A stretch of 61,858 nt of DNA, filler included, from Hausera hauseri (lineage: Eukaryota), in assembly GCA_046269625.1 (NCBI GenBank). It is 11 parts of 11 records of this genome, joined end to end, with 100 filler letters (N's around TTAATTAATTAA, not from the genome) between each part and the next. Parts side by side here need not be neighbours in the genome. Positions count along the whole stretch, not along the records: positions 20,102 to 25,525 come from JBJURY010258178.1; 10 more parts are not named here. One strand, 5' to 3'. Position 1 is the first letter of the stretch. Each line of letters starts with the position of its first letter. Below the pieces are notes generated by a model, which saw only the letters and a list, made by a program, of their open reading frames with translations, had not been told where the DNA came from and made no database searches. Below, in pieces: positions 3,130-33,800 of this stretch. The position numbers were made by a program, and so were the translations under genes.

Positions 3130-4170
3130 TTACTGAAGTTTTTCTATCGTATCTTCAGGTTCTGTATCTGTGGTCTCACGTTCTTTATTTGTGTCGGATA
3201 TATTTCCAATCATTTCGACCTGCTTTTTCTTTTGGTTCGATTGTCCTTGCTTAGGGCAGGAACGACCCATATGTCCATATTTCTGACCTGAAAAACATAA
3301 TGGCTGTCCATCTTGATTTACCGTAGGCTTTCTCATTGCAGATTTCTGAAGTTGGTTTTGTCAAGAGACCTTTTTTTGTTGTTGTTCCGGTTGACCAGAA
3401 TACTTCTGAGAAGGCTTTTGCTGAAAATTTTTCTGTTGGAATTTTTGCGATTTTTTGTGATCATTTTTGGGATGTTTCTTAATATTCTCAAGTGTTTCGT
3501 AATTTACTTCAATCTTTCTGGCCTTATTGATGGCTTCTTTATATATATCCGGATCTGCAACAATAATATATTTCTAGATTTTCTTATTGACACCATAATA
3601 GAATTGAGCGAAAAGGGCATCTTCCCTTATATCATCATTTGCATAAACTCTGTGAGCCAGTTTCTGAAAGGCACATGCAAACTCTTGCACGATTTTGCCT
3701 TTCCTTTGACGCTGCCTGTTAAACTTTTCTATTCGACCTTTTCCTGATGGGTTTACTAAGAGATTTTTTTTCGAGGGCGTCCTTAAGGCTGGTCTAAACA
3801 GCCTTATCTTTATTGTCCTTTTATTTGTGCATAAGCACTTAGTGCTATATCTTTAAATTGTAAAGGGAGTCTCTTTATTCTCAGTTCATCTGTCCAGTTA
3901 AAGCTTTCCGAATACATTTCGTATTGCATAATAAACTCTGCATAATCTTGATCAGGTTTGGCCTCGTATTTATCCATCGGTAACCTCATGGTTCCTGATA
4001 GATTACTGCCAATACTTGCACCTAATCCTGAATTTGATATTTCTGGTTTCTCGTTAAGATTTATCTGTGGATTTTCGTCTGATTCGGAACTACTCCTTGC
4101 CGAATCAGTACTCGAAGCCGTATTAGTAGCGTGTATACGTTTACATCGTAAAGAATACGACGCCAGTGTG
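3130..4170 (-). pseudogene. Gypsy-type gag (capsid domain plus degenerate zinc knuckle), disrupted
   Basis: Minus-strand translation MRLPMDKYEAKPDQDYAEFIMQYEMYSESFNWTDELRIKRLPLQFKDIALSAY resembles a Gypsy capsid. Knuckle CFSGQKYGHMGRSC (CX2CX4HX4C with one C lost) lies in ORF 3130-3336. Confidence 0.75.
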
Positions 4171-4172
4171 CC

Positions 4173-4196
4173 TCCTCATTCGGGACACCAGTGACA
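4173..4196 (-). promoter_or_regulatory. LTR 3' end (...TGTCA) followed by primer-binding-site-like TGGTGTCCCGAATGAGG
   Basis: Minus strand reads TGTCA-C-TGGTGTCC immediately upstream of gag, the canonical LTR/PBS geometry. The cognate tRNA and the LTR 5' boundary were not determined. Confidence 0.65.
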
Positions 4197-9309: not shown

Positions 9310-12300
9310 GGTAGGTTAAATGCTTTGCGTTATCGAATGTTGTTCTGTATGTTAAACAAAGACCAAGATATAGCAAAACCCTTTAGAGAAGAACGCAAAG
9401 AGCACGTTAGCAATACGAAGGTGCAGGAAAGAGAGTCGTCGCAGAATATATTCCGTATGGTAAGTAATACAATAAATTATTGGGCAAATAAGGATACAAA
9501 CGATGAAGCCAGTAAGAACGAAGAGGTCCACACTCAAGAAACCTCTTCAAAGTTGCCACCAGTAGAAAAGCAATTAGACGCCCCTGTAAATCAACGATTA
9601 CCAGAGGAACAGCACGAAGAGCAAACACAGTCTGATGATGGCCATTCTAGTCTAATACACATAATGACGGAACATAGAAACAAGAGTACACCTCACGAAT
9701 GTTCTGATCATCTAGAAAAAAGATCACCATACCCAGGTCAAAAGGAGGATTGGGAAGGCATTGATCCTACATATAAACCTCCACCGAAAAAAGGGAAATA
9801 TAGTTGTCCCAAGGAAATATTACAAAAAAAACCACGTTGACACTGAAGAATGGAAAAAGTTACCAGAGTCGCTAAAGGAGGCAATGGAAGAATTAAACGA
9901 GAACGGTTACGAATGGGAACCATATGAAACTAATAAACGTATAGCACCAGAGCTAATAAGGGTAATACGAGAAGATATGAATTTAACACTCAAGGAAACG
10001 ACTTATGAGACAAAGACGATCCTAACCATTATAACGAAGACGCTGTACCCTAAGGGAGTATATAATTACACAACGGCCAATGAGATAATTCCTTATTTTA
10101 GATTAATAAATAGCTTAAGGACAAGTCCAGCAGTCCTACCATCGTTGAGGGAAGAAATGAACCAAGTCTTATGCAGACTAGTACATCAGCCACCACATTT
10201 CCCAGTAAATTCAAAAAGAATAAGTGCAGAAGAAAAAGATATTCCAGACACTATAAAGAACTTACGCATTATAGCTGACAGGAATGAACAATGGTTAGAT
10301 GATATCGAACCGAAAACAGAATATGCTGCCCTGTCTAATCCCGACTACCCTGATACAAAATTGCGTATATATGGGGAAACTCCCAGAGAACGGAGTAGAG
10401 ATATCGTTAACTGCCTGTTGCTCCAAGGTAGCATAGACCAATTACCTTACGAGGATAAGGAAAATTTTATGAAACTGTATATGATTTTATACGAATCATA
10501 TTTTAATCGGTTGAGACAAGAAACAGGAATAGATCTTAGGAAATCAACCTATGATCATCCGTTACTCTTAATATCCAGTCTGTTATATATCTCATATAAG
10601 ATGCCGATAGACGATATACAATTCAGCCCATGGGTAGATTTTCAAACTAGGGTATATTACCAAGGATTTCGTTTATTACAACGAGTTATAAGAGAAATAC
10701 AGTTACAACCTATATGGTTACAACCAGCCAAGATTATGATAGGAACATGGAATGAAATGATGGGAATATCAGGCATAGAACCTATGTGTCCGAAACACGA
10801 GTTATTAATAAAGAACCGATTGGAAACTCATTCTATACTACAGATAATTCGTTGTTTACGATCATTCGATTTTCTAATAGAAAACCATAATTTAATGTAC
10901 GAAGAAAGTATAGTATATGGAGACAGAAATAAATATCAACCTTTATTCATTGGTAGTCGAAGGGAACGGATGATGATTACTCAATTTTTGCAAGAAAAAT
11001 CACAGTTGCATAAAGTAACTGATACAACTGACTCATCTACAGCAACTGATATAATTAACTATATCCAAAGATTATCTCCGAAATTAATAGTGAGTAGAAT
11101 TCCAAAAAAGATATTAAAAGCAGCCAATCAGTGTCTGGACTTGTTTAAATATTATGGCGAAGAGTTGAGTACTAACTCCCAGTCTGAAGCCTACGCGATT
11201 AAATGTTGGATGACTTATACACTCATGACCATAAAAGATAATGTCGTTCAAGAAGATATAAAACTTTTTGAGAAAGATGAAGCACAGGTAGTATGGAACG
11301 ATTATTTGAAACGAGATACGAATACTATATTGACCCCAGAGGACTATATGGATATAGATAGATTCGACACAGTGAATGCCAGTGGATTTTCTGGAAAATT
11401 AAATGCAATACGGTACCATACAATATTCTGTGAACTAAATGATAACGTCGAAATAACAAAACCATTTAAGGAAGAGAGAAAAAGAATAATAAACACTCGC
11501 AGACAAGAAATAGATAATAATAGAGAGACAGCAACGGTTAAGACAAGGGGCCACCGAACACCAAACGCTCTTGATAAACGAATCCTAAATTTATATTTTA
11601 ACAAAAACTTATCCAGAATGGAGGAAGATATAGATGAAAAGAAAAGAAATGGTGAGTTATGGTCAGAAAGCGATGACGATGACTCTATTGGCCAGATAAG
11701 TGTTAGTAGTAACGCTAACACAGATAAATTCGAACCTACCAAAGAAAGCATCTCAAATGCTACTAGAGAAAAAGAAGCACGGATAGTATGGAATGATTAT
11801 TTAAAACGGGATTTGAACACTATATTGACCTCAGAGGATTATATGGATATAAATAGATTTGACACGGTAAATGCAAGTGGATTTTCAGGAAAACTAAATG
11901 CAATACGGTATCATACGATATTCTGTGAGCTAAATGATAACAATGAAATAGCGAAACCATTTAAAGAAGAGAGACAAAGAATAATAAACATTCGTGGACA
12001 AAAAATGAATAATAATGAAAAAACGACAATAATTAAGACAAGGGGCCTTCGAACATCGAATGCTTTTGATGAGCGAATTCTGAATCTGTATTTTAACAAA
12101 AAGTTATCCAAAATTGAGGAAGATACAGATGAACCTTACAAGAAAGGAAATGATGAATTATGGTCAGAAAGCAATGATGATGACCCTATTAGCCAGATAA
12201 GTGTTAGTAGTAACGCTAACACAGATAAATTCGAACCTACCAGAGAAAACACCTCAAATGCTAGTGGAGAAAAAGAAGTACATGAACCAGTGTTGTCCAA

Positions 12301-14991
12301 CAGTCGCCAGTTCAGTATAATTGGTACCGGATTGAGATACCCAATGTTAATATTACTCATTATTCCATTTATATTATTTGGAACAGCTGAAGCCGCTCCA
12401 ATAACATCGAAACATACACCGGAGAATTCGTTGACTTGGATGATATTATTGATTTTTATTAATCTTATGTTCTATACGAAACCAACTAAACAATCAACTA
12501 GCGATGAGGATACCACTCCGACTGAAGGACATACTGTAATAGAAGAGGTCCCAACTATTAGACCAAAATTAATAAAACGCCGAACTACAGCACAATTAAA
12601 GGAGTTAGCGATTAATAAACCCTTGCCACTTGAGCAAGAAAACACTGATCATATAGATAATTGCCGCATTAAACAATCAGAAGAGAACAAATCTCAAAAC
12701 ACTACTATAAATACATATTTACCGTTATCTCGACAAATAGAGAAATATGAACGCAAGAGAATACAAGAAGATAAAGGAGAACAACAAGTCTTCGTTAGAG
12801 AATTTGAACAGGATGAAGGATGGTTAGATTTGAATACTTCAGTTCAGTTAAACCTGGCTATTTATGCTAAAGATCCGAAACTTAATCAACACTATTTACA
12901 ATTAATAACTAAAAATGAAGATATAATCAACTATATAAAAGAGGAAATTTATTCTCCTTTTGACGTACTCTCGGAAGAGACGCAAATAATCATAGCATTA
13001 ATTGCCCAAGGAGTAGAATCAATCACAGATCACCCATATTTAACTGTTAACGAAGTCGTCCCAATATTTCGTCATATAAATAAGCTTCGTAGAGAACGAC
13101 ATAAATTATCAACGGAAGAATACGAATTATATACTGTTGCTAATCGAGTAGCCCACTTACCTTTGAATAATAGGAACCCTGTAATTACACTTGATAATGC
13201 TCCTGATAAACGAATAATGATTAATGATCTTAGACAAGCGCACGTAATGCAATTGGAATGGAAAAAAATATTAGACGGCTCAATCCGAACAGAAATGGTA
13301 TACTGGAAATGTATCAAAATGAGATAACTTCTCGTCAAAGAAACAGCTGGGATATTCACCAAAGTGTTCAATACGCAAATTATGTATGGAGTTCGCCAGA
13401 CCATATAAGAAAGGAACTTATATCATTTCACCTTGACATGTATAAGAAATATCTCGAACAATATCAAAGGGAGTCGAATTACAACCCCAATACCCATCCA
13501 ATGAAAGATAATCTATTACTAATCACTAGCTTTCGACGTTCTCTAGCTAAGGAAGCAATAATTGAAGGCAAATCTTTTAGAGAAAAGTATGAAAACGAAA
13601 GAATAATTTATAATTCTGGCTTAAGAATATTTGATGAAATTATGAATGTATCAGGAATAAAACTTCCATGGTATAATCCCATGTATGAATTGATTAAAGC
13701 CTGGAATTATAGATGCGGAATACGATCAGTTTGTTTAAAGAATCCAATACATAAATTAATAATCATACACGAGTTACAACTATTAACCATACCACAATTA
13801 ATAGAGAAGATACGATCTGTGGACTTAATAAATATAAGGCATAGCTTCGATGAGAGTGAAACACTTGTAATTGGATCCAATGAGGATTTCCAACCTTTAT
13901 TCATAGGAAGTGAAGCCGAAAGAAAATTTCTAACGAGATTTCTACGAGGAGATAGAGCACCGTTACCAGTAAAGCATGGCAAGAGACAAATCGAGGATGA
14001 ATTACCTGGCATAAATGATTACATAAATGATCATGAAATGTGTAGCATAATTAACTATAACTTAACCTTATACGAATGGTTTGGATTGGAACTAGTAAAG
14101 CAATGCAAAGGAGAAGTATATGTACCATGCATTACAGCTTACTCAATAATGGAATTGAAGGATAAGTTAGATGATGAAGCACTACAAATAATAGAAGGAA
14201 AGGAGATCAATATCTTATGGAATAAATACTTAGAACGAGATTTAAACCAAGAAATATCAAAACAAGATTATCAAGATATATATTCATTCTGCAACGTGAA
14301 TGCCGAAGGGTTAACTGGTCGAATAAATGCTATTCGATACCGCTTAATATTTTGCTCGTTAAATATACCTAATGAGAAAGCAAAGCTCTTTAAGTTGGAA
14401 AGAGAAAGGCTAGTATCTCAAAGGAAAACAGTCGTTCGAAACCGAATTAACGGTTTAGTAAAATTCGCAACCAAATCCCTCACTTTATTAACACCTATGT
14501 TTATACTGTCACGACTAATCAAGAAAACGGACGCAAAAATGATCACCAGTACTACTATACTGACTAGCAAACCAGCGATGTCTTCGATTTCCATATCGGA
14601 ATATACCATTTCTGCAGTAATATTGACACTTCTAATTAGCCTTATAATAGGAGCGTTAGTGTTTTTCAATAAGAGGATTAATCGATATAAGCAATTTAAT
14701 TCTACTGGACGAGTTATACTACCAACGATTAGTGGATACATAATTGTAACTAGCTTATTACCCACGGTTAAAGCTAGAGCCTGTAATAAGGAGATATATG
14801 CTTATAGTCGAGCTATGAAAGTAATGTCATTAATGCTACTAATAACGTTCATTTTAGCGTGGACTAGTTACATTGCTATACTGATCAGGAGATCGTATAA
14901 AATACGAAAAGAAATGAAAAGAAAGGAACAATTAATGTTGGATATAGAAGCAACAAAGGAGGAACCACCTCCAAAATACGACGATATCTGA
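9310..14991 (+). CDS. Large (~1900 aa, 5'-truncated) repeat-containing membrane polyprotein, split into three overlapping ORFs (9310-9840, 9761-13327, 13258-14991); probably a retroelement accessory region
   Basis: Intronless open frames overlapping at A-homopolymers (~9824 and ~13262). Motif G(R/K)(L/I)NA(L/I)RY..(L/I)FC.LN occurs four times and QPLFIGS twice. Hydrophobic pairs at ~12343-12475 and ~14480-14885. No recognisable enzyme domain. Confidence 0.7.
11279..12277 (+). repeat. In-frame tandem duplication, period ~495 nt (165 aa)
   Basis: EAQVVWNDYLKRD...NANTDKFEPTKE repeated as EARIVWNDYLKRD...NANTDKFEPTRE, with copies starting at 11279 and 11774. Confidence 0.95.
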
Positions 14992-15162
14992 AACAAACTG
15001 CCACGTGTTTACAAACGACTGGCAGTCCCTATAGCTTTATCAGCACTCAATGTAACTACANNNNNNNNNNNNNNNNNNNNNNNNNNNNNNNNNNNNNNNN
15101 NNNNTTAATTAATTAANNNNNNNNNNNNNNNNNNNNNNNNNNNNNNNNNNNNNNNNNNNNCA

Positions 15163-16528: not shown

Positions 16529-17224
16529 TATGGCTGATATGTTTATACCTGCATAAAAGAAATAAGTTAGTGTATATTAATTTATTATATAATTTTATTT
16601 AATGTTTTCAATTTAAAGTTAACATTTACTTTAATTTGTTTAAATTTAGAAATGTTCACAATATCCCATGTACTGCATCTCTCGCATACATGAGGTAGAT
16701 CAGTGCCATCAAGCGATGGCGAAATATTCCAAAATCGGAACGGACACGTATGTGTGTCCGACGTGTGTTTTTCCAACGAGCTGTCCGCACCCCGATTTTT
16801 ATGAGGTGCACAAGCACCATCTCGGACCGTTTGCACGGTAATTTTTTAAGAATTACATTCTGTATGCCTTGATTAATCTATTATTCAGTTACTTTTTAAT
16901 CTTTTCAAATATACGTTGTGCTATTAAAAACCTTTTGAACTCCAGCACTTCAAATAGCTGCATTCGAGTGAAATGTAGTATGCTTAATCTGCAACATGTG
17001 ATAGTTTAAAAAAAATTGTTTCATTATTCCGAATGATTTCTATCCAATTTGGTGCTCAATGTTAAAGTAAGCTCTCCATCGTGAGTGGGAAATAAATTAC
17101 AAGCTGTTTATCAAGATCAGAGTCCTTCAAGAAGTTTTGTTTACAAAAGCTTCGTGGACTTGAAAACGTGGAAAAGAGATTATTTAACACATGTATTGTG
17201 ATACAGTAATATATGATTGTTATT

Positions 17225-18236
17225 TTTCAATGTAAGAACCATGTCAGTCAATGCATTTTTGCCGTCTACTGTAAAGTTCATCAAAAGCCTTTGCAAAATT
17301 ACACGGTGATAAAGTCTGTAGATAATCTTGAACACATAGTTTGACTTCATCCCCTTGCAGAATTTTCTTCAAATACTTAAATAAATGGAAATCTGATGCA
17401 GCTAGATCAAAACGGTAAGGCGAGCGATCTAGCTGCACCATTTCCAATGTTTGAATCGCTTCCTGTGTTGTTTATGAGGAATGAATCTAAGCATTATCGG
17501 GGAGAATCCAATAAGTCAAAGAATGAAGCTTCCGTTTTTTCTTCTTGGCCTGTGTTAGCAACTTGATATAATATATGGAATCCATTTTCGAGCCACGATC
17601 AACAAAATCAGCAAAAACAATTCCGTGATAATCCAAAAAATTGAAAGCATGAAACTCTCTGTGACTAGCGCCTTAACGCAATTTTTGAGTGGGCTTTTCA
17701 GTCGGAAACTTCCATTCAGTACTTTCTCGTTTAGATACAAGTATGTAAAGGCTAAGAGCTGTCTCATCTTGAGTAAGAATATTTTTAAGGAATAAATAAC
17801 CATGATGCTTTAAAAGATCGAGAAATAATTGAGAACAATGTGCACGACGATTCATCATTTCACCAGTAAAAAATTTAGGCACGAACCTTGATGCCAATTT
17901 TGGAATACCCATTGACTTTCGGATATTTTGGCATGGCCCATAGCTTAAGTGTCCTCTGTCTGCTAATTCTCGAATGGAAATGCGCCTTTGGTAGGGAACA
18001 ATTTCGGCAATTTCGTGTTCATTTGCTTCAGAAATTTCTGTTGGTCTGCCACCAGATTTTTCATCCAGCACTGATGTTCGTCCACATCGAAACTCTTTCA
18101 CCTATTTGTAAACAAAACTTCTTGATGAACTCTCATCTTGATAAACAGCTTTCAATTCTTCTACAGTTTCTTTCTTACACATATTTTTCTTCATAAGTTA
18201 CATAATGATACTTCTAAATTCAACTTCTGACGTCAT
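17225..18236 (-). mobile_element. mariner (DD34D) transposase pseudogene
   Basis: N-terminal HTH (EFRCGRTSVLDEKSGGRP), RFVPK, TQDET, LPDNA and SPYRFDLAASDFHLF (YSPDLAPSDF-like). TIRs not identified. Confidence 0.92.
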
Positions 18237-20617
18237 TATCTGAAAATAAAATTAAATAATAAAACATCCGGAAAATGAGAGCTTAGCTTTAAATTGCGCG
18301 CCAAATAGGACAGAAATCATTTGGAAACAAAACTTTTTTCAACTATCGCATGTTGCAGATTACGTACACTATATTTCACTCGAATGTATTTATTTAAAGT
18401 GTTCGAGTCCACGAGGTTTTTCATCGCACAACGTATTTCATAATATTTATGAAAAAGATGTAGCTGTGCTTTTTGTAGTCTGTCTGTATTGTCGAAAACA
18501 TCATCATTTGTAAAAATATCTTGCTCTACTGATAGTTGGGTGTCTGAATAGTACAAATAGTTGTGCGTAAAGGACTGAAAAAGGCGCGCATATATTGTTT
18601 TGTTCATGCCGAAATATCTGCCCGACTGATGTTTAAATATTTCTCTGTCGAAAATCTGACAAAGGGATGACAATTGCAATTACTAACTTCAAAAATTGCT
18701 TAGGATGAAAATTTGAAGAATGAAGAAACAATAAAAATTTCATGGATTCTATGTAATATGAATTTTATTTAATTTTGGGTGTTTATAATTATAATACGAT
18801 ATTCACACACGCTACTTTATAATATTTTACATTTGGAATTGGATCGAAGAAACACAGCTGTTCTGCAAAGAAAATGCATAAAGTGTCAAGACTGCGTTCA
18901 GTCGGTAGAAAATGCATTTATCACAAAGTATGGTACATAGTATTCTTGAAAACGACATTTTTGCGTAATGTTATTCAAAATCGAAATAAATCTGGTACTT
19001 ACTAAATGTTTGCATTTCAATTACTCTATACAGACAGCACTTAAAATAGTACTTTTCATCCTCAGCACTCTTTGACTATAGATACACTATCTTGATAACA
19101 TTATCTATCTTCATGAATATTTTCACAGCTTGAATTTGGTGACTAAAATGATACTTAGTAGTAGAATTGCGCAATGTTTGGCGTACATGTGAAATCAATG
19201 TCGGAAAATTGATTTCGCACAATTTCAACTTTGTCTGACCATGGGGACATGAGGAAAAATTGATTGGAAAATGTCACACTCTAAAAATTTCCCATTGTTC
19301 AAGTCTGCTGGTTGTGGAAATTAGTTGAGCACGTAGCCCATCAGTAGTTGAGCATTTTATATTATAACCGCCTCACGATCAGGCCAATGGATTCGGATGA
19401 AAAATGCCACCGAACGAACGAACTAAAAGTCGAAATTATCGTCGTTGTAAATGCGTTCCTTTTGTAGAAAAATCGTGAATTTTATTTTGTACGACGACGA
19501 CAACGACGAACACACAAATTACCACGAGCTCATAATTGAGTACTACTACTACTCGGAAGGTGGTGGTGGTAGTGACAGTCTGCCTACAAACTAATAAGTA
19601 CCATCACCACCACCAAATGTGAAGCTAGCATTAATGAAAATATAATATTATTTCTCATGATTTGTTCGCTCTTTAGTCGAAAATTCATTCCCGAAATATA
19701 GGACATTTAAAGTCGAGACTGTTGTTTTTTGGAAGCACTGTTTTCAAAATCAGCAACGTGTGTCAATAAATTATGACCACTACACATACTAGCATATAAA
19801 ATACCATGGCACTTAGTTTATCGTCATTTCGAAAATTTTCGACAACCGAAAATGGATCATCCAGTAAATGTTCGTTTTTTTCTTTTAATAATTTTTTTTG
19901 TATCAAAATTTTATTATTAATTTTAATATTTTATTAATTTTTCTTTTTATTATTAATTTTTATAAACGATTTAGCTTCAGGCACCTACATAATCGGACTC
20001 ANNNNNNNNNNNNNNNNNNNNNNNNNNNNNNNNNNNNNNNNNNNNTTAATTAATTAANNNNNNNNNNNNNNNNNNNNNNNNNNNNNNNNNNNNNNNNNNN
20101 NGATTAAAACATCATGAGTTAAATAAATTTTTGTATAATCATAAATTACTTCATTGCATTTTATTCCAAACTTCTTGATCATATTGATAATCATTGTCTT
20201 CTGAACGTTAATAATTTATTAAACTAAATCATTGTATTCAATAGATTTGGAGTTATTAACAATTTATTTAATAAAACATTTTTCGACACCCAGAAGAACC
20301 TATTATTAAAAGCCTGAATTTACCTAGAAAAATTTAGTGTGAATATTCTATTTTGTTTAAATTTCGAATGTGTTATTTTTATACATATAATGTTATAATG
20401 TTAGCGCAACACTTACACCGAATCCAAATATATTTATCGCCAAATTTTACATATTTCGCAAATTTTACAATCAGACTTATTTACAGACATTTTTAACTGT
20501 ATTAAATTTATCATCTAACAATTTTATGATTTATCAGTCATTAGTGGTTGTTTGTTAATGATCGAGAAACCGAAGGTTGTTTTTTGATGAAACTTTATTA
20601 AAAATGAGGAGGATGTT

Positions 20618-21800
20618 TTATGGATTTTTGACAAATAATGATCCAAAATAGGTGGAAATGTAAAAATTGACGAAATTTTGTGAAAAATGTAAAAAACGTG
20701 GCGGTAATTTGTGAAAAATAGAAGAAAAGCGGTCAAAATGATCAAAAATGTCAAAAATATGTGAAGATGGAAATCTTACATGGCCAAAACGTCGTAATTT
20801 ATCGTAATTTATGTAATTGTGTATTGATTGGTACTCATAAGGGAACTCTAAGGGCGATTTTTTCAAATACTCCGATTGTTTTTGCATTGGTGTATTTATA
20901 TCATCCGAGGAGGCTTGATTTGACGTATTGCTTATTCCGTCATTAACAGTATATGTTCCATCTTCTTCCTCATTGTCAGGTGTACTTTTTAAAGGATTTG
21001 GGACTTTTATTATTTTCCCATGCTTAGTAAAACGTTCATCAGATTTGTCACCGTCGTTGCCAAAGAATTTACTCATTATTAGTAGTAAAAATATCCATAA
21101 CAATATTGAGGTCCATGAAGAACTAGGGCGATAAGAGGTAGTTTCCACTGCTTCTGCTACACTAATTATGGAAAGAAAACATACTCCCATAAGGAATAAC
21201 GTTCCCAATGAAAATGTGGAATAACCCTTGATACCTGATGATTCCCGTTTTTTATCCTCTTTCTGAAGGCCTTGGATGTGCATAGCCCTTGTTTCGTTAG
21301 CAATTTCATCCATATATTTAATACTATTTCCTGCGCATTGTAATCGGTCTATCATCATCCACTGTTCCTGAGGGAGATTATTATCTAAAGGTTGTCCCAT
21401 TCTTCTATTCCAGACTTGTTTAACTTCCTCTACTCCATTAATGAGTTCTCGCCCTCCTATATTTATATTGTGATGTTTATAAATTTTTAATGCTCGGCTG
21501 CCAGCTACATAATCATGGTGTTGTGATTTTCCTGGACTAGCTAAATCAGGAATAGTATAATATACCTCTTCGCAGCTTAACTTTATAAGAAGTTTATGCA
21601 GAGTGGCTAATGTATTAAAATCCAATTTTAGATCTTCGCAAATTAATTTTATTATGGGTCTATACTGTTTGTCCCTTATTCCGCACTTTTCGTGGTATTT
21701 ACTAAGGAAGTTTCTTAATTCCGTTATATTGTTTATAGGTCCTTTGACTAGTTGTTGTGCATGATTTATGCATTCTGGTGTAGCTAACTGTAAATTCCCC
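20618..21800 (-). CDS. Accessory membrane module of the Gypsy 3' extension (soluble domain + internal signal peptide + TM)
   Basis: ORF 20618-21625 extends upstream in frame (…HEKCGIRDK…). Contains LFLMGVCFLSIISVAEA|VETTSYRPSSSWTSILLWIFLLLIM. The final ~50 codons are low-complexity and may not be real. Confidence 0.55.
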
Positions 21801-21812
21801 AGCCGGTGTCGG

Positions 21813-22502
21813 TTAGCGGCCTCTGGTTAATGGGAGTGGTGGTAGTTTCCCTGCTTTTTGTTGAGGCAATTCGAAATAATTCTGCTCAATTGGTTTAACT
21901 TCTTTGCGTTGGACTTGCTTAGTAAGGTCTATTTTCCTTAACTTAGTATCATTATGTGTTAACGATTTTTGGCTCTCTTCCGGTTGATATTTTTTAATTT
22001 CCTCTCTTAGTCGTTTAATATTTTCTTCTGCTTCTTCCAACGTCTTGCTTAGGACAGTATAACTTACGGGTGGCTGCATCTCGCTTGTGGTTTGAATTTC
22101 CATTAAATCAGGATATATTGAGGTTGTTGATACAGGTCTTGATAAGACTTGAAACAAATTTCGTGGTGGTTTCTGTGGAATGCTTGCTATACTACTTATC
22201 GAACAAGTATCCATGTCGGTTATTGAGGGTAAGGGTACTTGTTTTCTTGTTTGATCATTCAAGGAGGAATTATCTGTTTCCTCATCATCAACTACCATAC
22301 TGCTATTAAACATATAATATGCTGATATCAGCAATAACATGACCGTACTGCTCCACGCATTTGTAGCAGTAGTCGCGTGCATTGGTTGGGCGTCCGCACA
22401 TCCAAATATTATAAGCAATATTAACGTCAACAGTGTTATTGTAGACAACTTAAAGAGATTTCCGAAAATTGTAGGTGGGGTATTAATTGTAGGTATTTCC
22501 AT
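21813..22502 (-). CDS. Accessory membrane module in frame with the integrase/protease region
   Basis: LLTLILLIIFGCADA|QPMHATTATNAWSSTVMLLLISAYYMF followed by a Ser/Pro-rich tail containing YPDL and a coiled-coil-like segment. Confidence 0.6.
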   Translation of the reverse strand: MEIPTINTPPTIFGNLFKLSTITLLTLILLIIFGCADAQPMHATTATNAWSSTVMLLLISAYYMFNSSMVVDDEETDNSSLNDQTRKQVPLPSITDMDTCSISSIASIPQKPPRNLFQVLSRPVSTTSIYPDLMEIQTTSEMQPPVSYTVLSKTLEEAEENIKRLREEIKKYQPEESQKSLTHNDTKLRKIDLTKQVQRKEVKPIEQNYFELPQQKAGKLPPLPLTRGR

Positions 22503-22689
22503 TATTCGCGTTTGCGTTATCCTTTGTGCTAGTGTAGATTCTGTATTCTGTTAGCTCATTTGCTTTAATGTAACATAATTTAATGGGGGTGGAACAGTCT
22601 CTTCTCTTGGTGCGAACCACCATTGATCATTAGGTTGAGGCTTGGTATCTTGGTAACCTTCGCAATTAAATATGATTGATCTTCCGATA

Positions 22690-23498
22690 ACTTTGAGTTC
22701 TGCTCCCGTCAGTTTGTATAGCACATCTAAACCAATAATAAGATCAGAATACGATTCTTGTGGATTGGCATAACAGGTAACATCAACATAACCTATAGTT
22801 AGATCTAATTTTCCTCATGCTTCGGGTATATAATGTGTAATTCGTCTATATATTCGTAATTTTATACGACTCAGCGGGGTAGTGGTATCAAGTTCCGCGT
22901 TAACGTACTTACCGTACACCTTAACCAATATTGGTATCAACAAAGGATAATCATTATAATTCTGACGATAATGCATATTATATAATAACTCTAACCTTTT
23001 TATCTCTTCTTCCAGCTCGTTCACATTTTTTCGATATTTCTCCAAATCTTTCGTTTTCTCCAACGAATTTGTAGCTACGTCTATTACTATATCGTAATCT
23101 ATTAGCGTATCTCTGCCTATGATACAAGGAATGTTGGAATTTTCTAGTATGTGGTATAAAATCTTTGATCGTTTGTTTTTTAATTTGGTCAAGGCTGTAA
23201 CTACGCCTATCACCTTTAGCTGATTGCCGTTTATTAGTTTGTGGTTTATCTCACTACTTTCATTTAATTTTAGTTTTAAAATTTCTATTGTAGTCTTATT
23301 TAAGTAATTTTTTGCTGCTCCTGTATCTATTATTGCTTCAATTTTAACTTTGTTAATAGTTATAGTTGTAGTTACCATATTATTTGATCCATCTTCTATG
23401 AATGCTATCGTTGTATTTTTATCCTCCGATTGCATTCTGTTCCTTAACGGGTATCTACAAGATGGTGGTTGTTCCGTATTTTCATCCTCCAACTGCAT
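22690..23498 (-). CDS. Two tandem retropepsin-like aspartic protease domains downstream of integrase
   Basis: First domain AIIDTGAAKNYL...CIIGRDTL. Second domain AELDTTTPLSRI...DLIIGLDVL, read through the TGA at 22815. Confidence 0.8.
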
Positions 23499-23582
23499 TC
23501 TACTCCTTAATGGGTACTTGCAAGGTGTTGTTCGCTCCAGTTTGCGTTCTTTAGCTACTAGTCTACATCATTGTACACTCAT

Positions 23583-24623
23583 TCAAGAGGTTTTGTTTGG
23601 ATTGGACAAATTCTTCAATTCTACACTTGATTCAGTTATTTGTAATATCTTGTATGGTCCTTTGTATGGTAATTTCAATTTAAAGCTTTCGCCGGGTTTA
23701 TAAATCTCATCTAGTATGTTAACCATGTCTCCGATTCGGTACACACGAGGTTTTGTTTTCTTGTCGTATTGATCTTTGTAGTTTTCCTGGTGGTATTTAA
23801 TTTTTATCTCTGCTCTGATCCATGCTTCTTGTAATCTTTCCTGTAGAATTGTTGCATAATCCGGTTTCTCCATCAGTTGAGACTGTGGCGATCTATATTC
23901 AATGTCGATTGGCATAATATCTCGTCTGCCATACAATAAAAAGAAGGGTGATTCTCCAGGTGTTGTATGAGGACTTTGACAATAAGTGTATACACAAGGT
24001 TTTATATATAGATCCCAATCAGCTGGATGGTCGTAGGCATAATTGGATATCATAATTGAAAATTGTTTATTAAAGGCTTCTACTGCACCGTTGGCTTGTG
24101 GGTGGTATGTTGATGTAAATTTATGATTAATTCCTAGTATTGCCAATACTTTTTCCATAAGTTCGCTGCAAAAATTACTTCCTCTATCAGATATCATTGT
24201 CATGGGTACTCCATATTCAAATATTACGTCGTCGACCAATCTTCTGGCCATAACATCCGTGGTTTGGTTCACCATTGGCATCGCTATTGGAAATTTTGAG
24301 TGATAGTCAATAGCTGTAAGTACACATGTATTTCCTCTAGCGGTAGTTGGTAATGGTCCCACTACATCAACGCCTATACAAACGAATGGTGATGCTAAAA
24401 CTGGTACCGGTTTTAATGGTGTTTTTCTTGCTTGAAAATTTCCTCTTCGTTTTGAATAAACTTGACAATTTGTACACCAATCTTTCACATCATCTGCTAT
24501 CCTTGGCCAATAATATTTTTGCTTAAGTCTACCCAATGTGGCTTTATAACCTCGATATCTGCCGAGCTGTCCATCATGATAGTGTAGTAAAAGTTTTGCG
24601 CGCATGTGTTTTGGCACAACCAT
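23583..24623 (-). CDS. Gypsy integrase (zinc-binding region, DDE core, GPY/F motif)
   Basis: YHDGQLG..YYWP..WCTNC; GVDVVGPLP; ISDRGSNF; YHPQANGAVE; PYKGPYKI. Confidence 0.96.
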   Translation of the reverse strand: MVVPKHMRAKLLLHYHDGQLGRYRGYKATLGRLKQKYYWPRIADDVKDWCTNCQVYSKRRGNFQARKTPLKPVPVLASPFVCIGVDVVGPLPTTARGNTCVLTAIDYHSKFPIAMPMVNQTTDVMARRLVDDVIFEYGVPMTMISDRGSNFCSELMEKVLAILGINHKFTSTYHPQANGAVEAFNKQFSIMISNYAYDHPADWDLYIKPCVYTYCQSPHTTPGESPFFLLYGRRDIMPIDIEYRSPQSQLMEKPDYATILQERLQEAWIRAEIKIKYHQENYKDQYDKKTKPRVYRIGDMVNILDEIYKPGESFKLKLPYKGPYKILQITESSVELKNLSNPNKTS

Positions 24624-25104
24624 GAGTAAGTGTTCACTTTCCTGATAGTATATATTTCCCTATCCATTGTTTATTTATTTTTTCTCCCTTCTTTGTTTAG
24701 ACTATTAAGGATTTTACTCATTTCCTTATCCTTTGCTTGTTCTTTAGTTATGGCTTCGTGTGTAATTGGTATTGTCAGGAATGTGTGCATCTCTTCGATA
24801 ACTTCTGCATTATCTACTTCATCTATCATGGTCTGAATTAAGTCAATCATTTTATTATACTCGTATAAGATGTCTTCCACTAACGGATCTTTGTAGTCAC
24901 TTTGTTTTGTATTTTGTTGATTATTTTGTTGAGTGTTTGAATAATCATACTTATGAGTTGGCCTGTATCTTTTGTGCATTTTTTTCGTGTTGCTTTGAGT
25001 ACCTCTTGGTGAACGCTCTGCGCATAATATTCTTTTAGTTCTTGCATGTCATCATAATCCGGGTTGATGCAATCGTCATAATTTTAATAGAGGTCACTTT
25101 CTTG

Positions 25105-25525
25105 AAGTCTTGATAGAAAGTCTGCATTAGCGTTTGCTTTTCCTTGTCGGTACTGTATTGAGATTTCTAAGTCTTGGATTTCTGCAGCCCATTTCATTAA
25201 TTTTCGGCTGGTGTCTCATTGTATCATTAGCCACTGTAAAGGTTTCTGGTCAGTATATAGGATTATTTCTCGCCCCGTTAAATAATATCTAAAATATCTT
25301 AGAGCATATACTATCGCATAACATTCTCGCTCGATTTTTGACAATTTACACTGTGTTTCACTTAGCGTTATACTAAAAAATGCTATTATTCCTTCACGCG
25401 GTCTGTCGGGGACACATTGTCCTAAAACTGAACCTATAGCGTAACCGCTGGCATCTGTCATTATAATATATGGATATTTAGGGTCAGAAAACTGTAGTAT
25501 TGGTGGAGAAGTTAGGACTTGTTTT
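25105..25525 (-). pseudogene. Gypsy RNase H domain (contig ends before RT)
   Basis: LTSPPILQF...TDASGYAIGSVLGQ...ERECYAIVYAL...YTDQKPL...GKANANADFLSRL, with one stop. Confidence 0.95.
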
Positions 25526-25983: not shown

Positions 25984-26869
25984 TTAAACCAAGTACCGGT
26001 TATCACGTGGAAATAAATCCTCAGAACGCGCTGACAAATTCTGAAGCACGTTTACAAAGAAGATTAAACCAATTACGGTTACCCAGTAACCGTGGCTCCT
26101 TTGCTGAGGAAAGTGGCACTTTCGAGGTCGCCACATAGGGAGGAGAAATGAGGTGAAAGTNNNNNNNNNNATGTACAGAAAATTATTTTGAAAAGTTGAT
26201 TGAAGTTAAAAGCAATTACCAAAATTTATGAGGACAAGTCCGCAAGAATAAACGCCTACAAAATTCGCAAACATAATTATTCACCCGCAAATGTAAATAA
26301 TTTCTGAAGAATTATTTACGAAATTACTCATTTACAATTACGCCCACTAAATGCTGCACCATATATACTGACTTAATAAATCAGATAGTGTGAATATTTT
26401 GATAGAACTTCGAGTTAGACTTGTCTTCAGGAGTAGAATAATCAGAAGGATATTCGATAAAACATTGAAGAGGGCAATCGATTTCAGAAGAAAATTTGCC
26501 GAATACTAAATTAACTCGTAGCTCGTGGAGAATTATAATCTGACGCTGTACGTCGGAGAAGTATTTGTTATTTGTGTTAACCAATATATTTTTTGTTCTT
26601 CAAAATTTTCATAGTTTTCTCACCGTCCATTAAGGAAGATTTTTCGTCACAAAGGTCATAATCAAAGTAAAACTTAAGTAGATAAGTATTAGAATTATTT
26701 TAAGCATCCGTAATAAAACCGCTTTGCACGAAGTACCTGCACAATAACCTTATAGACACAATCGATTGAACGAGAACGTCAATCCGCTCTTGCAATTTAA
26801 CTTATCTTAGAGTTTGAAGTTTTGTTATAGTTCTGGTGTTGTTTACGACCCACTGAAACAACATATATT

Positions 26870-29093
26870 TAGGGTGTTCAAAAAGTCCGGATACAGCAAA
26901 TAACTTCGAAAACCAAGAGTCTAAGAAAAATTCTGTCTAGATATGGGTATAGGTTTTTTTATTACCTATTCGATGGTCATCTTGAATTTGACTTTGACCT
27001 TCAAGGTCATTGCAAGGTCAAGTCCATTTTTTCAAATGAAACCTTTGAAGGTCAAGGTCAAAGTCAAATACCTGATCATTAAAGTAACGCAATCAAAAAC
27101 GGTAAAATAGAAATTCGACACTGGTATTTCATATAAATTGGTATTTATAATATCAATTTACAGTGACTCGGTTAAAGTAAGTGTTCAAAATTTTCACCAT
27201 TTACATGTTGACAATGTGCTAATCGTTGATAAATGTCACCTATGGAATTTTGGATGGTTAATGGATCAAGCAGTTCTACTTCATCTGTGATATTTTGTTT
27301 CAGTTCTTCAATATTTGTAGGCTTTGATCTATATACTCCATCCTTCAAATATCCCCATAAGATGTAATCAAGCAAAATGAGATCAGGAGATCTCGCTGGT
27401 CATTCGATCCTGCCTCTTCGGCCTATCCATTTTTAATGGAACATATTATTTAAGTATGCTCGAACATTGCGTCCATAATGAGGAGCAGAACCATTCTGCT
27501 GAAACCAAGTATTTCTAAAATCATTGCCTACAATACCCCCGATATCGTCTCTGAACATTGTCTCATACTTTTCAGCAGTGAGATTACTCAGTGAAAAATG
27601 ATCCAACAATTCTATCATTAAGGGTGCCTGCCAAAACGTTAATTATCTGAGGGTATTGAATTAATCTGAGTCAATCATCCAGTTTGGATTTTTATCACTC
27701 CAATACCTCATGTTGTGCCTATTGACATGACCGTCCAATTGTAATGTAGCTTCGTCACAAAAAACAATACATCTTGGAAAACTATCATCAGCAATTATTA
27801 GATCCATCATCTTGTCACAGAACTCAACTCGTCTATCTGGATCATCCTCGTTCAGTTTATGTACGAGTGTTACTTTGTACCTATCGTACTTGAGTTTCTT
27901 TTTCAAAATATTATGAATCGAACCAACGATGAGATCGTGTTTTGATGTAATTTTCTTACTCATGTATGACAATCGTCCACGACGGACTGTGCAACATTTA
28001 ACTGGTTCTCTTCATTCGTAGCGATTGCGACACGGCCTTATCTAGGGCGATCTTTTACACTACCTGCATCATTAAAGCAGTCGAGTGTTTTCTTAACGGT
28101 CATATTAGAAATTGTTTAATTTCTTTCTGGAAACTCCATATTAAATAAATCCTGTGCATCTTGAAAAGATCTCATTTTGTCACCGTAACCTCCCATCATG
28201 AGAATGGTTATTCGCTTACGCTCAGTAAGCACTATTTTTTAAGATATTAATATTCAACTAGTTACTTGAATATAAGTCAGATTTGGAAAAATTACTAAAA
28301 TAAAATAACTATTTGAAAATTGTTGAAGATAGAGGAAAAAATCAAAAACAAAACTAAGTGAAAATAAAGTGAAAGGAAAATTTTCTCCGATAAAAGATTT
28401 TCTGACAATTATGAAATTTGTACCTCTAAAAAATGTTTAAATTTGGCAAATATTGAAATGTTTACTCATGTATTCACAAGAATTCAAAGGTATAACGCAT
28501 ACGCAATATGATATCAAATTAACTAATGAGATCAGTTGCACATTTACACTAAAAAAACGATTTTCTGCTTTAACGGATAATGAGATAAATTGTGCGTGTG
28601 CAAACTTGTTTGAATCTTTGTTAAGCGTTTATTGTTCATTATTGAGTTTAAATAAATGATTGAGTAAATAATTAAGTTTATGAATTTTTTCAAAATTAAG
28701 GCGTTCTGATTTACTAGATTTTAGGATAATTACATTCATATAAATATAAAAAATATGAAATACCAGTGTCAAATTTATATTTTACCGTATTTGATTGAAT
28801 TATTTTAATGATAAGGTATTTGATCTTGACCATGACCTTCAAAGGTCAAATTATTTTGAAGGTCAAGGATATATCTGGACGTACAATTTTCTGCTTTATC
28901 TATTTCCGGTGTTAAAAGTATAGGGTGCCATTTGAAAAAATGGACTTGACCTTGAAATGACCTTGAAGGTCAAGGTCAAATTCAAGGTGACAATCGAATA
29001 TCCAAGGAAAATCCTATACCTATACCCAGGTAGAATTTTTAGACTCTTGGTTTTCGAGATTATTTGCCGTATCTGGACATTTTGAACACCTTG
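26870..29093 (-). mobile_element. Tc1/mariner-superfamily DD41D (rosa/visitor-like) element with long TIRs; transposase pseudogene at ~27172-28236
   Basis: Inverted termini (T)AGGGTGTTCAAAA...TTTTGAACACCTTG-TA. Inverted similarity extends ~270-340 bp with internal TGACCTT/AAGGTCA repeats. Motifs FCDEA, WFQQNG and PARSPDLILLDYILWG, with 41 residues between the 2nd and 3rd catalytic positions. Confidence 0.92.
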
Positions 29094-30868
29094 TATAATG
29101 TCATTTATTTATGAAAGCATTTTTTTTCTGAATTACCTTTAGCATTGGTGCTTTTGTCTACTTATACAAGTTTGTAACTTTGTCTCGATCGTACAGATTG
29201 ATATTTCCAATTAGGTCATATATTTTGTCTTCTAGATCAGATTTATTTCCAAACTGTGGTCCGTTATATTTTTTTCTGATAGAATTCTAGGTGGCCAGTC
29301 CAACACATCAATATGATTTTCAAGCATCAGCAAACACAAACAATAAAATAAATAAATAAAAAACATGACTTGATTTATGGAACAGAATAACTGTACTATT
29401 CAGGTAAAAAGACATAAAAGTTAGTTTTTTAAGGGAGTCTGATCAAATCAAAGCTAGAATAAATTTCAAGCAGAGAAAAAAAAAGGACGTAATTTATATC
29501 AGTTACAAACACAGCTTTTTAAAAACAATTTTATTTATCCCTGAAAAGAGATCAGTACACTTAATCTGTGCAGTTTATGGTCTTAAGTCAATAATAAATT
29601 AAATGATTAACTAAATTTCAATGGGCTAGATTTTTAAAATTTCTGTCTCATGTCTAACAATTCTTAGAAAGCCAAAACCACTTCAGTACTTAAAAAAAAA
29701 CCCTCACACTTTAATAGTTAGTTATCCCTACTGAATATAAATTGTTAAAAATGGTAATTATATCCTTTAAAATATGGGTAAATATACTGTACCNNNNNNN
29801 NNNNNNNNNNNNNNNNNNNNNNNNNNNNNNNNNNNNNTTAATTAATTAANNNNNNNNNNNNNNNNNNNNNNNNNNNNNNNNNNNNNNNNNNNNCTATCGG
29901 GAAATAGTATTTATCCCCTAGTATTTATCTAATCTTGTTTTTCTATAGGTAAATTCAAATTAAGAATTAAATTTCGTCAGATACGCAAGAAAATTGCGTG
30001 CGGTTAAAACTATTTGAGATGTTCATAATAATTTAAAAAATATGTCGTGCCCAATCAGAAATCATGAGTTCCTTAAAATTATTCTATAGTAACATCTTCA
30101 TACTCAATTTATGACCAGGTATTTAGCATAAAAATGAAACAAAATTCTCAATAATTCTTAAATTGGCTTTCGTATTGATGGAATTATTCCTCATAAAATA
30201 CAGTTAATATAAGTGCTTTCACGTCAAAACAAGCATATAATACAATGAACATATATCATCTTACAAAGATATAAATTATATCTATCTTTATGCATACTGA
30301 AAGTAAAGGCCTTAATCATCTTGCAAGATTTTATGTAGTTATACCAAACAAAAGACCCAATTTTAATACACATCACAATTAGTAAATATATGTTAAAAAA
30401 TTCTCCAATAATATGTAATGTAAAATATTGAATTATTGTAAAATAAACTTCTATGCTTAATGTAAATAAAACACAATAAATAAAATATCAAGGCATTTAA
30501 AATTTACTATTATCTTGATCACACTACAACGCATACCGTTGCTGTGTGGTCAAACTAAAATACCAGTCTACCGTTTATTTTCCAATGCACTATCACAAAT
30601 GAAACGATTTTGGACATAAGTAACGGTATGTACAAAACAAAATATTTTTATCTAAATTTGTTTTCCTTATAGAGTGATTATACATAAGTGCCGCTAATTT
30701 TTTTCTCGGTGTTATTGAAGTAAATGTATATAGTAAACTATTTTACACACATATTTGAATATAAGTTTTTAAAAATACCTGTTTTTCAAAGATTTCAAAT
30801 TTTCATGTTATGCATTTTACTTACAAATTAATTGAAGAAATTATAGTTAAAATATTTTTATTTTAGAA

Positions 30869-33800
30869 ATGGAATTACCAGTTGTTTCTAGTCTGACGCC
30901 GTCTCCAGTTTGGTATTCTTCATGTGCTTTGGACACTTTAGAATGGAATCATGAAAAACGCTATGGGATATTTTATTTTGCCACAAGAAATCATATGTAT
31001 TTCATGAAATTATCCGAACAAATTGAATCATTTGATACGGATGTTAATAAAAAGTTAACATATGATTCCCAATTGATTTGTTACATTCGTGCTCATGAAA
31101 ACTACATCGGGGGTATTTGTACCATTATCAATGGAATTTCTCTGCCATTCGAAAACCAACGATTTCCATCAAAAATCGTTTCATATGGTCAAGATAAACT
31201 AATTAAAATTTGGTCATTCAATGACGATACTAATGCATGTTGCTGCTTGAAAATTTTCGAGTTGGATTCAACGAAAATCAAAGAGAATTTCTCATGTATA
31301 ACGGTCGTTTCGTCGACACAAACCGTTATTTGTGGTTTTAAACAGGGATTTATTCTAACGTGGAATTATAGCGTTGAATCAGAATTCAAAGAGTTTAAAA
31401 CAGAATCGCAAGATGTCAGTCAGATTTTGTCACATGACGATAAATTTGCTGTAGCATATCGTCAAGGATTAGTAGCGGTCTATGTGTTAAAAGCATACAA
31501 TTCCATTGAGAAATACGCTCGATTTCGGGCACATAACGGTGACGTTTGCAGCATGTCCTGGAATCCCCACGAAGATTCGATTGGTCAGTGGGGAGATTTT
31601 GTTACGTCGGGAAAAGATCGGAAACTAAAATTTTGGGATTTGTCGAAAAATTCCACAATAAGATCGATGAACGTTCCAACAATGAAACAGAAAGTTGTAA
31701 AAGATGGTGATGAAAATGTTGCCAATCCATCGAGTTGGATATCGGTTTGTTGGTCTGTCGATCATTCGAGATGCATTATTTTATCTACGGGTTCCGGTTC
31801 GCTCGGAATTTTAAAATCTCCTGATTCTGAATTCAAATTTTTCAGTTATAAACCAACGATTAAAATTCACATGAGACCGGTTTTCAGTATTAAGGAATTT
31901 CATAACAGTTCCGGTTTGTTCGTTAGTCACAGTATGGATCGGGTTATTTGCGTTAGTCATTTGAAGTCGGATAAATGCGAAGGCGAACATGTTATTTCAG
32001 TGCCGTGTTTAGGATCGTCCGTTACGGCGCTGGATGGTACTGATTTGAACAACCAATTGGCCGTTGGTTGTGCCGAACAAATGATTAAGTTATGTCGATT
32101 CGATACCGATAATAAACGGCCATTCGATGTGATGAACGTTTGGAAAGGTATATCAAGCGAGATTTCATCATTGGCATGGCATCCGTATCGAGAAGGGATT
32201 TTGGCATTTGGGACTGCCGATGGACAGGTGGGACTCATTAACATATTGAAGGATAAAAAAATTGTTAATGAATCTACTCTGCATCATAAAGGAAAGATCT
32301 ACCGTTTGAGTTGGGGTGCGGACATTCGTCGGCGAGATGTTCGCCAGTTGAGTTTTGACGATCTGCAAGATAATTTAATCGTTTACAGTATCGGGAATTA
32401 TTCGTTGTTTGCCCATGATTTTCGCAATGAAAAATATGCCGATGTATCGGAATTCGTGTGCGATTCAATCTGTCGGATTTCGGAAATTGTCGTGCATCCG
32501 CTGTTGCGGTACTTTGCAGTCGGCTACGGTGATGGTATCGTAACGGTGTTCAGTGTCACCGGCTCTACGCCAATTCTGTCAATTCACAATCACTCGAAAG
32601 GCATTAGCAGACTCCGCTGGTGTCCCAGTCGTTTGTCGGATACCAATGGGAATTTCCGTTTAGCGATCGGATCGAACGAACGATTCGTAACGGTTTCCGA
32701 TTTATCCAAGGTCATAAGGGAATTTGAAAAGTACGACGAACGGACTAAATGGAACGTTGTCGATATTGAAGAAACGATGGCCATGTTGAAAGGTCATGGC
32801 GATCGAATCACCGACATCAGCTGGTGTCCGTTCGATATCGATCGGCTCGTATCCGTATCGTATGATCACAGTGCATTCGTATGGAGTATCGCTACGAACC
32901 AGCCGCTGGCGACGTTTAATTACCATCAAGGGAAATTGTTCTGTTGTAAATGGAGCGATCGGGATCGAGATTTGATTTATACCGGTGGTGAAGACGGCAA
33001 TTTGTTCGGTTGGCAACTGTCTAAACAGAAGGTCGTCAGTAAATTCAATCGACGCCGACAGAAGGACATCATTGCGCTCGGTGTCCGACATAACCAACCA
33101 ACGAAAGAATTGGAAAAGCCGAGCACTGTTAAACACAAAACGGACGACACTGCGTCAATGGACACGATATCGGATACACAGACGATTGAGTCGTCGGCAA
33201 GTCATGGCACGAATTTCACCAAAAAACGGACGAGTCTCTTTCCAACGACTATTTTCAACACTCATCATTCGCTAGAAACGTATCAGAATGCCGTATTGGA
33301 TTATGCGTATAAGCGAGACTCGTTGGCGTGCTTTACGATATTCGATGACCGATCGGCGATATTGCGGCAAATTGACGTGGAATTGAATCATTTCGCCATC
33401 GTTCCTGGCCATTTAGACAATTATTTTTTGTTGCTGATATGGACGAGTAAAATTGGCCGGGCCATGACCGAATCCGTTGACAAGAATTACACACCGGATT
33501 GGCTGTTGACGTTACTGTTTGGATCGGTTGCCGGTACTTTACCGGATAGTCTCGTTCGTGCCGCAGTCAGTAATGTGCTCGTCAACAAGAAGGATCCCGT
33601 GTTGGCGGCCACATACTGGCTCGTTGCCGATCGAACCGATCGAGCGCTTGACGTACTTGTTACGAATAACCTTCTACGTGAAGCGTTCATTCTCGCCAAA
33701 CTACGGCTTCCTCCGAACAACTCGTTTCTGTCCGAATTACATCCGCAACTGCAATCGTATTATTACAAAAATGGAGCGTTTGAAATGTCGGCCGTCAGCT

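Follow-up and report, generated by a model that had tools for sequence, protein, structure and literature searches.

The window analyzed here, 61,858 nucleotides from the Hausera hauseri assembly GCA_046269625.1, contains a copy of a Ty3/gypsy retroelement with an extended pol frame. In this copy, on the contig at positions 20102-25525 (JBJURY010258178.1), integrase is followed by a retropepsin, a probable degenerate retropepsin, and two modules, each comprising an internal signal-like helix, a short loop, and a second hydrophobic, putatively transmembrane (TM) helix. The domains from integrase to module 1 lie in a single frame, the residues at -3 and -1 of the candidate cleavage sites follow a conserved pattern, and the family is very abundant. 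We consider it somewhat more probable than otherwise that signal peptidase would cut this extension into cytosol-facing proteins anchored in the endoplasmic reticulum (ER).

The window consists of short contigs strung together by N44-stop-linker-N44 spacers with stops in six frames, and adjacency across these spacers (N runs starting at 9210, 15061, 20002, 25526, 29794, 36150, 41771, 47877, 52624, and 57854) is artificial. RNase H, integrase, and both modules share contig 20102-25525, which opens within RNase H, while a comparison module at 12344 is on the separate contig 9310-15060. The features of the former contig are as follows:

25219-25524, minus strand: RNase H of Ty3/gypsy pol (Pfam RT_RNaseH, E 1.9e-25)
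23586-24659, minus strand: integrase, with a partly decayed zinc-binding domain, core, and GPY/F region (Pfam Integrase_H2C2, E 7.8e-16; rve, E 3.9e-13)
23436-23519, minus strand: two tandem [RK]YxLR motifs closing the integrase tail (motif present in 3 of 97 relatives, designated P0001, L001, and P0019)
23073-23405, minus strand: retropepsin downstream of integrase, with D-T-G and the C-terminal G-x-D intact (Pfam gag-asp_proteas, E 1.4e-07)
22980-23057, minus strand: charged helical linker, coiled-coil-like by eye in the sequence
22665-22955, minus strand: probable second retropepsin, degenerate (catalytic motif D-T-T, with one internal stop)
22389-22448, minus strand: signal-like helix of module 1, with the A-x-A site at 22397-22389
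22302-22388, minus strand: loop of module 1, short and polar, and its marginal second hydrophobic helix (at about 22358-22302)
21816-22301, minus strand: acidic tail rich in S/T/P, with a coiled-coil-like stretch, following module 1; frame change near 21820
21227-21826, minus strand: soluble domain of 200 residues, of no known family, predicted to be all-helical
21149-21208, minus strand: signal-like helix of module 2, with the A-x-A site at 21157-21149
21059-21148, minus strand: module 2 loop of 13 residues and putative TM helix (21109-21059)
20815-21058, minus strand: acidic low-complexity tail behind module 2, ending where the copy breaks off, with no 3' long terminal repeat (LTR) in this copy

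RNase H followed by an integrase with H2C2 and rve core domains assigns the element to Ty3/gypsy (Metaviridae). The frame from integrase to module 1 holds four stops in 948 codons (at 23585, 23570, 22817, and 22553), compared with 90 and 72 in the other frames. The first retropepsin combines D-T-G, the hydrophobic-hydrophobic-G-x-D motif, and a family match, and a profile built from 34 retropepsin segments gives it 51 bits. The second region yielded no Pfam match and has D-T-T in place of an intact D-[TS]-G in this copy; its 8.5 bits against the retropepsin profile exceed all 2000 shuffles (best 6.7), and it is a probable degenerate second retropepsin. Both regions, situated between integrase and module 1, had been overlooked in the first-pass annotation, which described 20618-22502 as an extension of a retroelement polyprotein. 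The modules do extend the Ty3/gypsy pol frame, but the interval comprises two open reading frames (ORFs) in different frames, with module 1 in ORF 22550-21816 and module 2 in ORF 21826-20621. The start of the interval also needs correction: the element ends near 20815, and the last ~200 bases (20618-20815) are a read-through into low-copy flank (GC content 0.29 vs 0.37). A flank contig with 0 differences stops at 20815, and the depth drops from >1000 to ~10 over 20645-20825.

Two public sequencing runs, from two studies, contain the stretch (20,324 and 2,280 contigs aligned at 80% likeness), and no RNA data set was listed among those containing it. The depths were 1,200-99,000 and 18-1,810 over 20826-25525, and 10-16 and 0-8 over 20102-20644; such depth is not a copy number, and the best-matching run may be the source sample itself. 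The contrast between element and flank indicates that the family is very abundant. Each of the three frame changes (near 21820, 24660, and 24925) matches a length difference in other copies; that at 21820 accounts for a low share of depth (7% and 10%), and the local depth collapses there. The private differences of the copy, 29 among those listed, are distributed over the codon positions as 10/12/7, as under neutral decay. These two observations identify a dead copy of a coding element, with four stops, frame changes, and truncation near 20815.

In contigs from other copies, the end of integrase is joined to the protease (joints 23475-23619 and 23516-23625) and the degenerate second protease to module 1 (X1 record 4, X2 record 9), and the contig of another copy (record 3) spans module 1 gap-free, with 41 differences in 317 nucleotides. 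A protease behind integrase is an unusual order and the extension has no relatives in protein searches, as might be expected if the protease and modules had come from a different element or from a captured host gene inserted after integrase in this single copy. This origin is very improbable: the bridging contigs, the high depth across the whole stretch in both runs, the frame shared with integrase, and the in-frame extension of sister elements at the same place all argue against it.

Both modules were found where the first-pass annotation had placed them, on the minus strand at 22448-22302 and 21208-21059. According to the von Heijne rule, the h-region of a cleavable signal stops at about -6, positions -3 and -1 are occupied by small residues, and Pro is absent from +1. 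The h-region ends at -7 in module 1 and -6 in module 2, with Ala at -3 and -1 and an acidic residue at -2, followed by a polar loop of 10-13 residues and the second hydrophobic helix. Four modules were compared, namely modules 1 and 2, the 12344 module, and one in P0097, a database protein described below. All four have an h-region ending at -6 or -7, a small residue at -3, Ala at -1, and D/E at -2; three have Pro at +2. Position +1 is occupied by Q, V, A, or T. Thus, by this rule-based test, the sequences of all four conform to cleavable signals. The Trp that had been described after the loop occurs in three of the four, at differing offsets, and is missing from P0097. Over its six frames the window has 73 hydrophobic segments, and the full design appeared in four of them (modules 1 and 2, the 12344 module, and the antisense frame over module 1) and in none of the other 69. 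Loss of the A-x-A site had been named beforehand as a point that could overturn the proposal; this objection failed because P0097 retains small-x-Ala, with T at -3.

The same features bear on whether cleavage occurs at all. The modules might instead remain uncut, as helical hairpins holding a single long polyprotein in a membrane, with processing by the element's proteases alone, as the very short loops, the presence of two protease domains in the element, and the L001 helix without a clean -3/-1 site might suggest. The fixed spacing with small-x-Ala in four of four modules, vs none of 69 background segments, and the conservative A/T exchange at -3 in P0097 make this unlikely.

The first-pass annotation had also pointed to the same design elsewhere in the window, and it is indeed present on the other contig, together with two further modules:

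12344-12478, plus strand: homologous module with a signal-like helix, A-x-A at 12386-12394, loop, and TM helix, kept in P0097
14473-14988, plus strand: two additional signal/loop/TM modules of less regular form, at the end of ORF 13234-14991

Contig 9310-15060 (plus strand) carries long ORFs of 1203 and 585 amino acids and three signal/loop/TM modules in all. Its proteins are composed of repeated ~570-residue units of no known family, with modules between units and two more at the end. The terminal modules have loops of 20-27 residues, a terminal PPxY motif, and basic patches after both TM helices (5 K/R and 0 D/E; 8 K/R and 2 D/E). An internal duplicate of 68 codons shows 15 synonymous vs 4 non-synonymous single changes, and a second duplicate, in a low-complexity linker, shows 2 synonymous vs 11 non-synonymous changes. 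The contig is protein-coding under purifying selection.

When the repeat domain of this contig was used for a profile search, a single match emerged among 1.84 billion proteins, P0097. It reads as one frame across a region that is split over two ORFs in the window. In its module, T occupies -3, Ala -1, and Pro +2, and the loop is of equal length. Module 1 resembled the 12344 module and P0097 with p = 0.0008, calculated with -3 and -1 omitted and the hydrophobic pattern preserved, and this comparison indicates that the three modules are homologous. The 200-residue domain behind module 1 bears a weak likeness to the repeat (p = 0.0015, rank 5 of 3002; hhalign probability 3.3). The two contigs have no physical link, so that the 12344 module need not belong to the element of modules 1 and 2, and contig 9310-15060 could be the 3' part of either that family or a sister family.

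Further searches added few relatives. Word-indexed protein searches with the module-2 ORF and with residues 200-800 of ORF 9716-13327 retrieved none; the viral contigs contained nothing matching integrase, P0097, or the protease, and the prokaryote genomes yielded two distant integrase loci only. The AlphaFold model of the repeat domain was unusable (predicted local distance difference test, pLDDT, 38.5). A weak ESM Atlas lead to family-B polymerase/DUF1744 (score 0.90, recognition below threshold) was rejected, being unsupported by hhalign against T4 gp43 (probability 0.2), PDB sequences, phage records, and Pfam.

The relatives of the integrase comprised 96 longer proteins and L001, which was obtained from 13 metagenome loci. 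The closest is P0001 (46%, E 7e-102), the next protein reaching 36% and L001 42%. A quick tree was built from 60 of 98 rows (89 cleared the coverage filter, and the 60 best by BLAST order were used), and in it the window integrase, P0001, and L001 formed one clade (SH-like approximate likelihood ratio test, SH-aLRT, 97). P0001 and L001, both Ty3/gypsy elements from metagenome assemblies, share with the present element the RYxLR motif, in one copy each compared with two here, and an in-frame signal-like helix and TM helix. Their order behind integrase is the RYxLR motif, a signal-like helix, a domain of 330-470 residues, a strong TM helix, and a short tail. Unlike the present element, they have one such putatively lumenal domain and no protease behind integrase, and L001 has a separate ORF3. 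No likeness was detectable between the P0001 and L001 ectodomains, and a fibronectin-III look of the former, noticed by eye, was not confirmed. A tail with 17-residue hydropathy >2 was found in only 2 of the 96 proteins, P0001 and P0064, the latter with a baculovirus-F-type Env. The rarity of such tails, together with the in-frame helix and TM segment in P0001 and L001, marks the membrane-protein slot as a trait of a small clade. The arrangements indicate that the lineage has a position behind integrase where membrane proteins can be exchanged, with differing payloads.

Other features of these relatives were recorded. P0064 is a Daphnia element with the baculovirus-F-type region in frame behind integrase. 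In L001, a 709-amino-acid ORF (3308-5437) with a faint exonuclease match (PHROG, E 0.078) lies behind the integrase-membrane-protein fusion, an array of 8.6 repeats of 64 nucleotides occupies 5977-6525, and by eye 7344-7749 holds a primer-binding site and then the gag of a tandem copy.

Internal signals in flavivirus, hepacivirus, and alphavirus (6K) polyproteins are cut by signal peptidase, and a signal helix in a viral polyprotein can remain as the C-terminal anchor of the upstream protein. Unlike the present element, these are RNA viruses, and their signals mostly precede large glycoproteins. By analogy, the first helix of each module would act as an internal signal that engages the signal recognition particle (SRP) and the translocon; the lumen would receive only the loop of 10-13 residues, and the second helix would serve as a stop-transfer sequence. 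Cleavage by signal peptidase after A-x-A would then generate (a) a Pol-protease piece, held at the membrane by the first signal helix at its C-terminus, (b) a protein of ~400 residues that has two anchors and a helical domain in the cytosol, and (c) a protein that spans the membrane once and exposes an acidic tail to the cytosol. Integrase would be released from its anchor by the protease of the element itself. The most likely job of these products would be to tie Pol, the protease, and the RNA under translation to ER membranes, nucleating particle assembly, with accessory domains displayed to the host cytosol. As a precedent for assembly of a retrotransposon at the ER, Ty1 RNA is reported to be sent there by SRP, where it nucleates assembly sites (PMC3945221).

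Several points weigh against signal-peptidase release. The cut is predicted by rule from sequence, the topology and function of the modules are putative, and the assembly role is drawn by analogy. The resemblance of module 2 to the 12344 module and P0097 was not significant (p = 0.11). With 40 of 1063 variable places displayed, the cleavage codons are unreadable across the family copies. In the sister elements, the signal-like helix of P0001 is weakly hydrophobic (11-residue hydropathy 1.63), and that of L001 lacks a clean -3/-1 site. Since contig 20102-25525 lacks the 5' half (gag, the usual protease, reverse transcriptase, and LTR), the downstream protease could be either extra or moved. Furthermore, module 1 has a marginal second helix, with a 17-residue hydropathy of 1.54 vs 1.78-2.12 in the other three modules, and an acidic stretch follows it (1 K/R and 6 D/E in 15 residues), contrary to the positive-inside rule; 4 K/R and 4 D/E follow the module 2 TM helix.

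If this weak, acid-flanked helix failed as a stop-transfer sequence, the following 360 residues would form a lumenal ectodomain anchored by the next helix, and the protein would be Env-like but diverged, comparable to those of P0001 and L001. Such a topology would agree with the signal-ectodomain-TM payload in the same slot of the sister elements and with the five Cys of the 200-residue domain. It appears improbable, for the 12344 module (1.78) and P0097 (2.03) have a stronger version of the homologous helix, so that the weakness in module 1 may be decay, and the A-x-A site of module 2 would go unused. The domain is also predicted to be all-helical (AlphaFold pLDDT 60 from one sequence). Fold searches with this model returned generic helical bundles only (best Z 6.6), with no viral match under E 0.1, and ESM Atlas gave no usable match. 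Glycosylation sequons were near chance, at 2 vs 1.1 expected in each of two parts. Env families gave no match at E<=1 for the element's ORFs, while the same library detected Baculo_F in P0064 at 7.8e-05. The element lacks the large F/gB ectodomain between signal and TM helix that characterizes Errantivirus Env. With loops of 10-13 residues, the predicted products are nearly without ectodomain, as the first-pass annotation had proposed in distinguishing them from classical Env.

Errantiviruses are likewise Ty3/gypsy elements with membrane proteins, but these have large F- or gB-type ectodomains, as do the Env-bearing Ty3/gypsy elements of a metazoan survey (PMC13524379). The TM-bearing ORF3s of bdelloid elements are separate ORFs, unlike the in-frame modules here (PMC5408684). 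The available descriptions of errantivirus and bdelloid elements mention neither repeated signal/short-loop/TM units nor a protease behind integrase (PMC13524379, PMC5408684). Nematode belpaoviruses such as Atlas virus encode a Gag-Pol-Env polyprotein from which cellular proteases release C-terminal membrane proteins (PMC9094657). The single polyprotein and the release by host proteases, which is conjectural here, are points of likeness, whereas belpaoviruses belong to BEL/Pao and have large phlebovirus-like Gn/Gc ectodomains. The planarian giant gypsy element Burro/GYPSM1 also has a polyprotein expanded by numerous accessory domains, an in-frame membrane protein, and a very high copy number (PMC6431247). 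In Burro, the Env-like region precedes PR-RT, and short-loop modules are not mentioned in the available description (PMC6431247). Its MATH, BIR, BCL2, and ankyrin domains were absent from the ORFs scanned here, the 5' half being outside the contig.

The env-less MDG1-group Metaviridae encode sORF2 proteins resembling FAST (fusion-associated small transmembrane) proteins, which have a small ectodomain, a single TM helix, and a cytoplasmic tail, and these elements spread by this means (10.1101/2025.03.14.642691). The products released here might similarly be small fusogens or viroporins that allow Env-free passage of particles between cells. If cleaved, the predicted products of both modules would have the FAST layout of a tiny ectodomain (10-50 residues) and a single TM helix. 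Moreover, polyprotein-released FAST-like proteins have been proposed for pistolviruses (PMC12945298), and the terminal modules at 14473-14988, with their longer loops, basic patches, and PPxY tail, are the only ones here with the basic patch expected of sORF2/FAST proteins. Modules 1 and 2 differ in other respects. The sORF2 proteins are separate ORFs of 60-210 residues with an often myristoylated ectodomain of ~30 residues and a basic patch, and an N-terminal myristoylation motif is present in four of six Drosophila sORF2 (10.1101/2025.03.14.642691). In contrast, modules 1 and 2 are embedded in a polyprotein, and none of the four modules compared has the Gly at +1 required for myristoylation. 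Their ectodomains would have 10-13 residues, the patch after the TM helix is acidic in module 1 or neutral in module 2 (K+R/D+E of 1/6 and 4/4), and the first endodomain, ~360 residues, exceeds the <150 residues of sORF2/FAST proteins. A fusogen or viroporin function for the released proteins therefore seems distinctly improbable. Judged by these features, the element is neither a classical Env carrier nor a standard FAST/sORF2 element. A post-integrase protease with repeated signal/short-loop/TM units was undescribed in the literature searched, which excluded Repbase, subscription journals, and bioRxiv supplements; a Repbase entry for the element may exist.

More speculatively, the pol end could be a swappable membrane cassette, represented here by a nearly ectodomain-free chain of proteins released by signal peptidase together with a membrane-tethered tandem protease acting as a single-chain pseudo-dimer. 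It would form a membrane-bound assembly factory and would offer an Env-free route from cell to cell through the FAST-like PPxY terminal modules. This combined scheme is a long shot.

The remaining contigs of the window contain other mobile-element and gene remnants. At 1712-4175 (minus strand), a decayed gag-like region with a zinc-knuckle-like motif is followed, by eye, by acidic/helical stretches and an AT-hook-like motif instead of a protease, and it may be the 5' portion of a further enlarged element. At 52668-55032 (minus strand) there are pieces of a different gypsy-type element (RVT_1). Polinton-like polymerase B fragments (Pfam DNA_pol_B_2) at 41895-46614 are flanked by long inverted repeats, and decayed Tc1/mariner-like transposases, recognized by eye, lie within inverted repeats at 16911-18436 and 26866-29097. 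An intronless ORF of 1195 codons at 30851-34438 (plus strand) is Gemin5/Rigor mortis-like (Pfam Beta-prop_RIG_2nd, TPR_GEMI5), and a decayed-looking glycosyltransferase family 4 (DPAGT1-like) ORF occupies 56140-56727 (minus strand). The Gemin5-like ORF, the polinton fragments, and the mariner remnants suggest an animal source. The segment 57954-61858, with 200-nucleotide repeats and a GC content of ~60% vs ~33% elsewhere, may derive from another organism; it contains by eye a tyrosine-recombinase-like ORF, with no Pfam match.

The membrane proteins so far described in Ty3/gypsy elements are large fusogens or small separate ORFs. If signal-peptidase release is correct, a cytosol-facing chain embedded in the polyprotein and cut at internal signals, behind a post-integrase protease, would represent a third design, following the logic of RNA-virus polyproteins and taking the place of an envelope gene in an unusual way. 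Surveys limited to F/gB homology or to short myristoylated ORFs would overlook such elements. Together with P0001 and L001, the element points to a lineage that swaps unrelated membrane payloads behind integrase, and such swapping within one clade would make the gain and loss of envelope-like genes by retrotransposons testable there.
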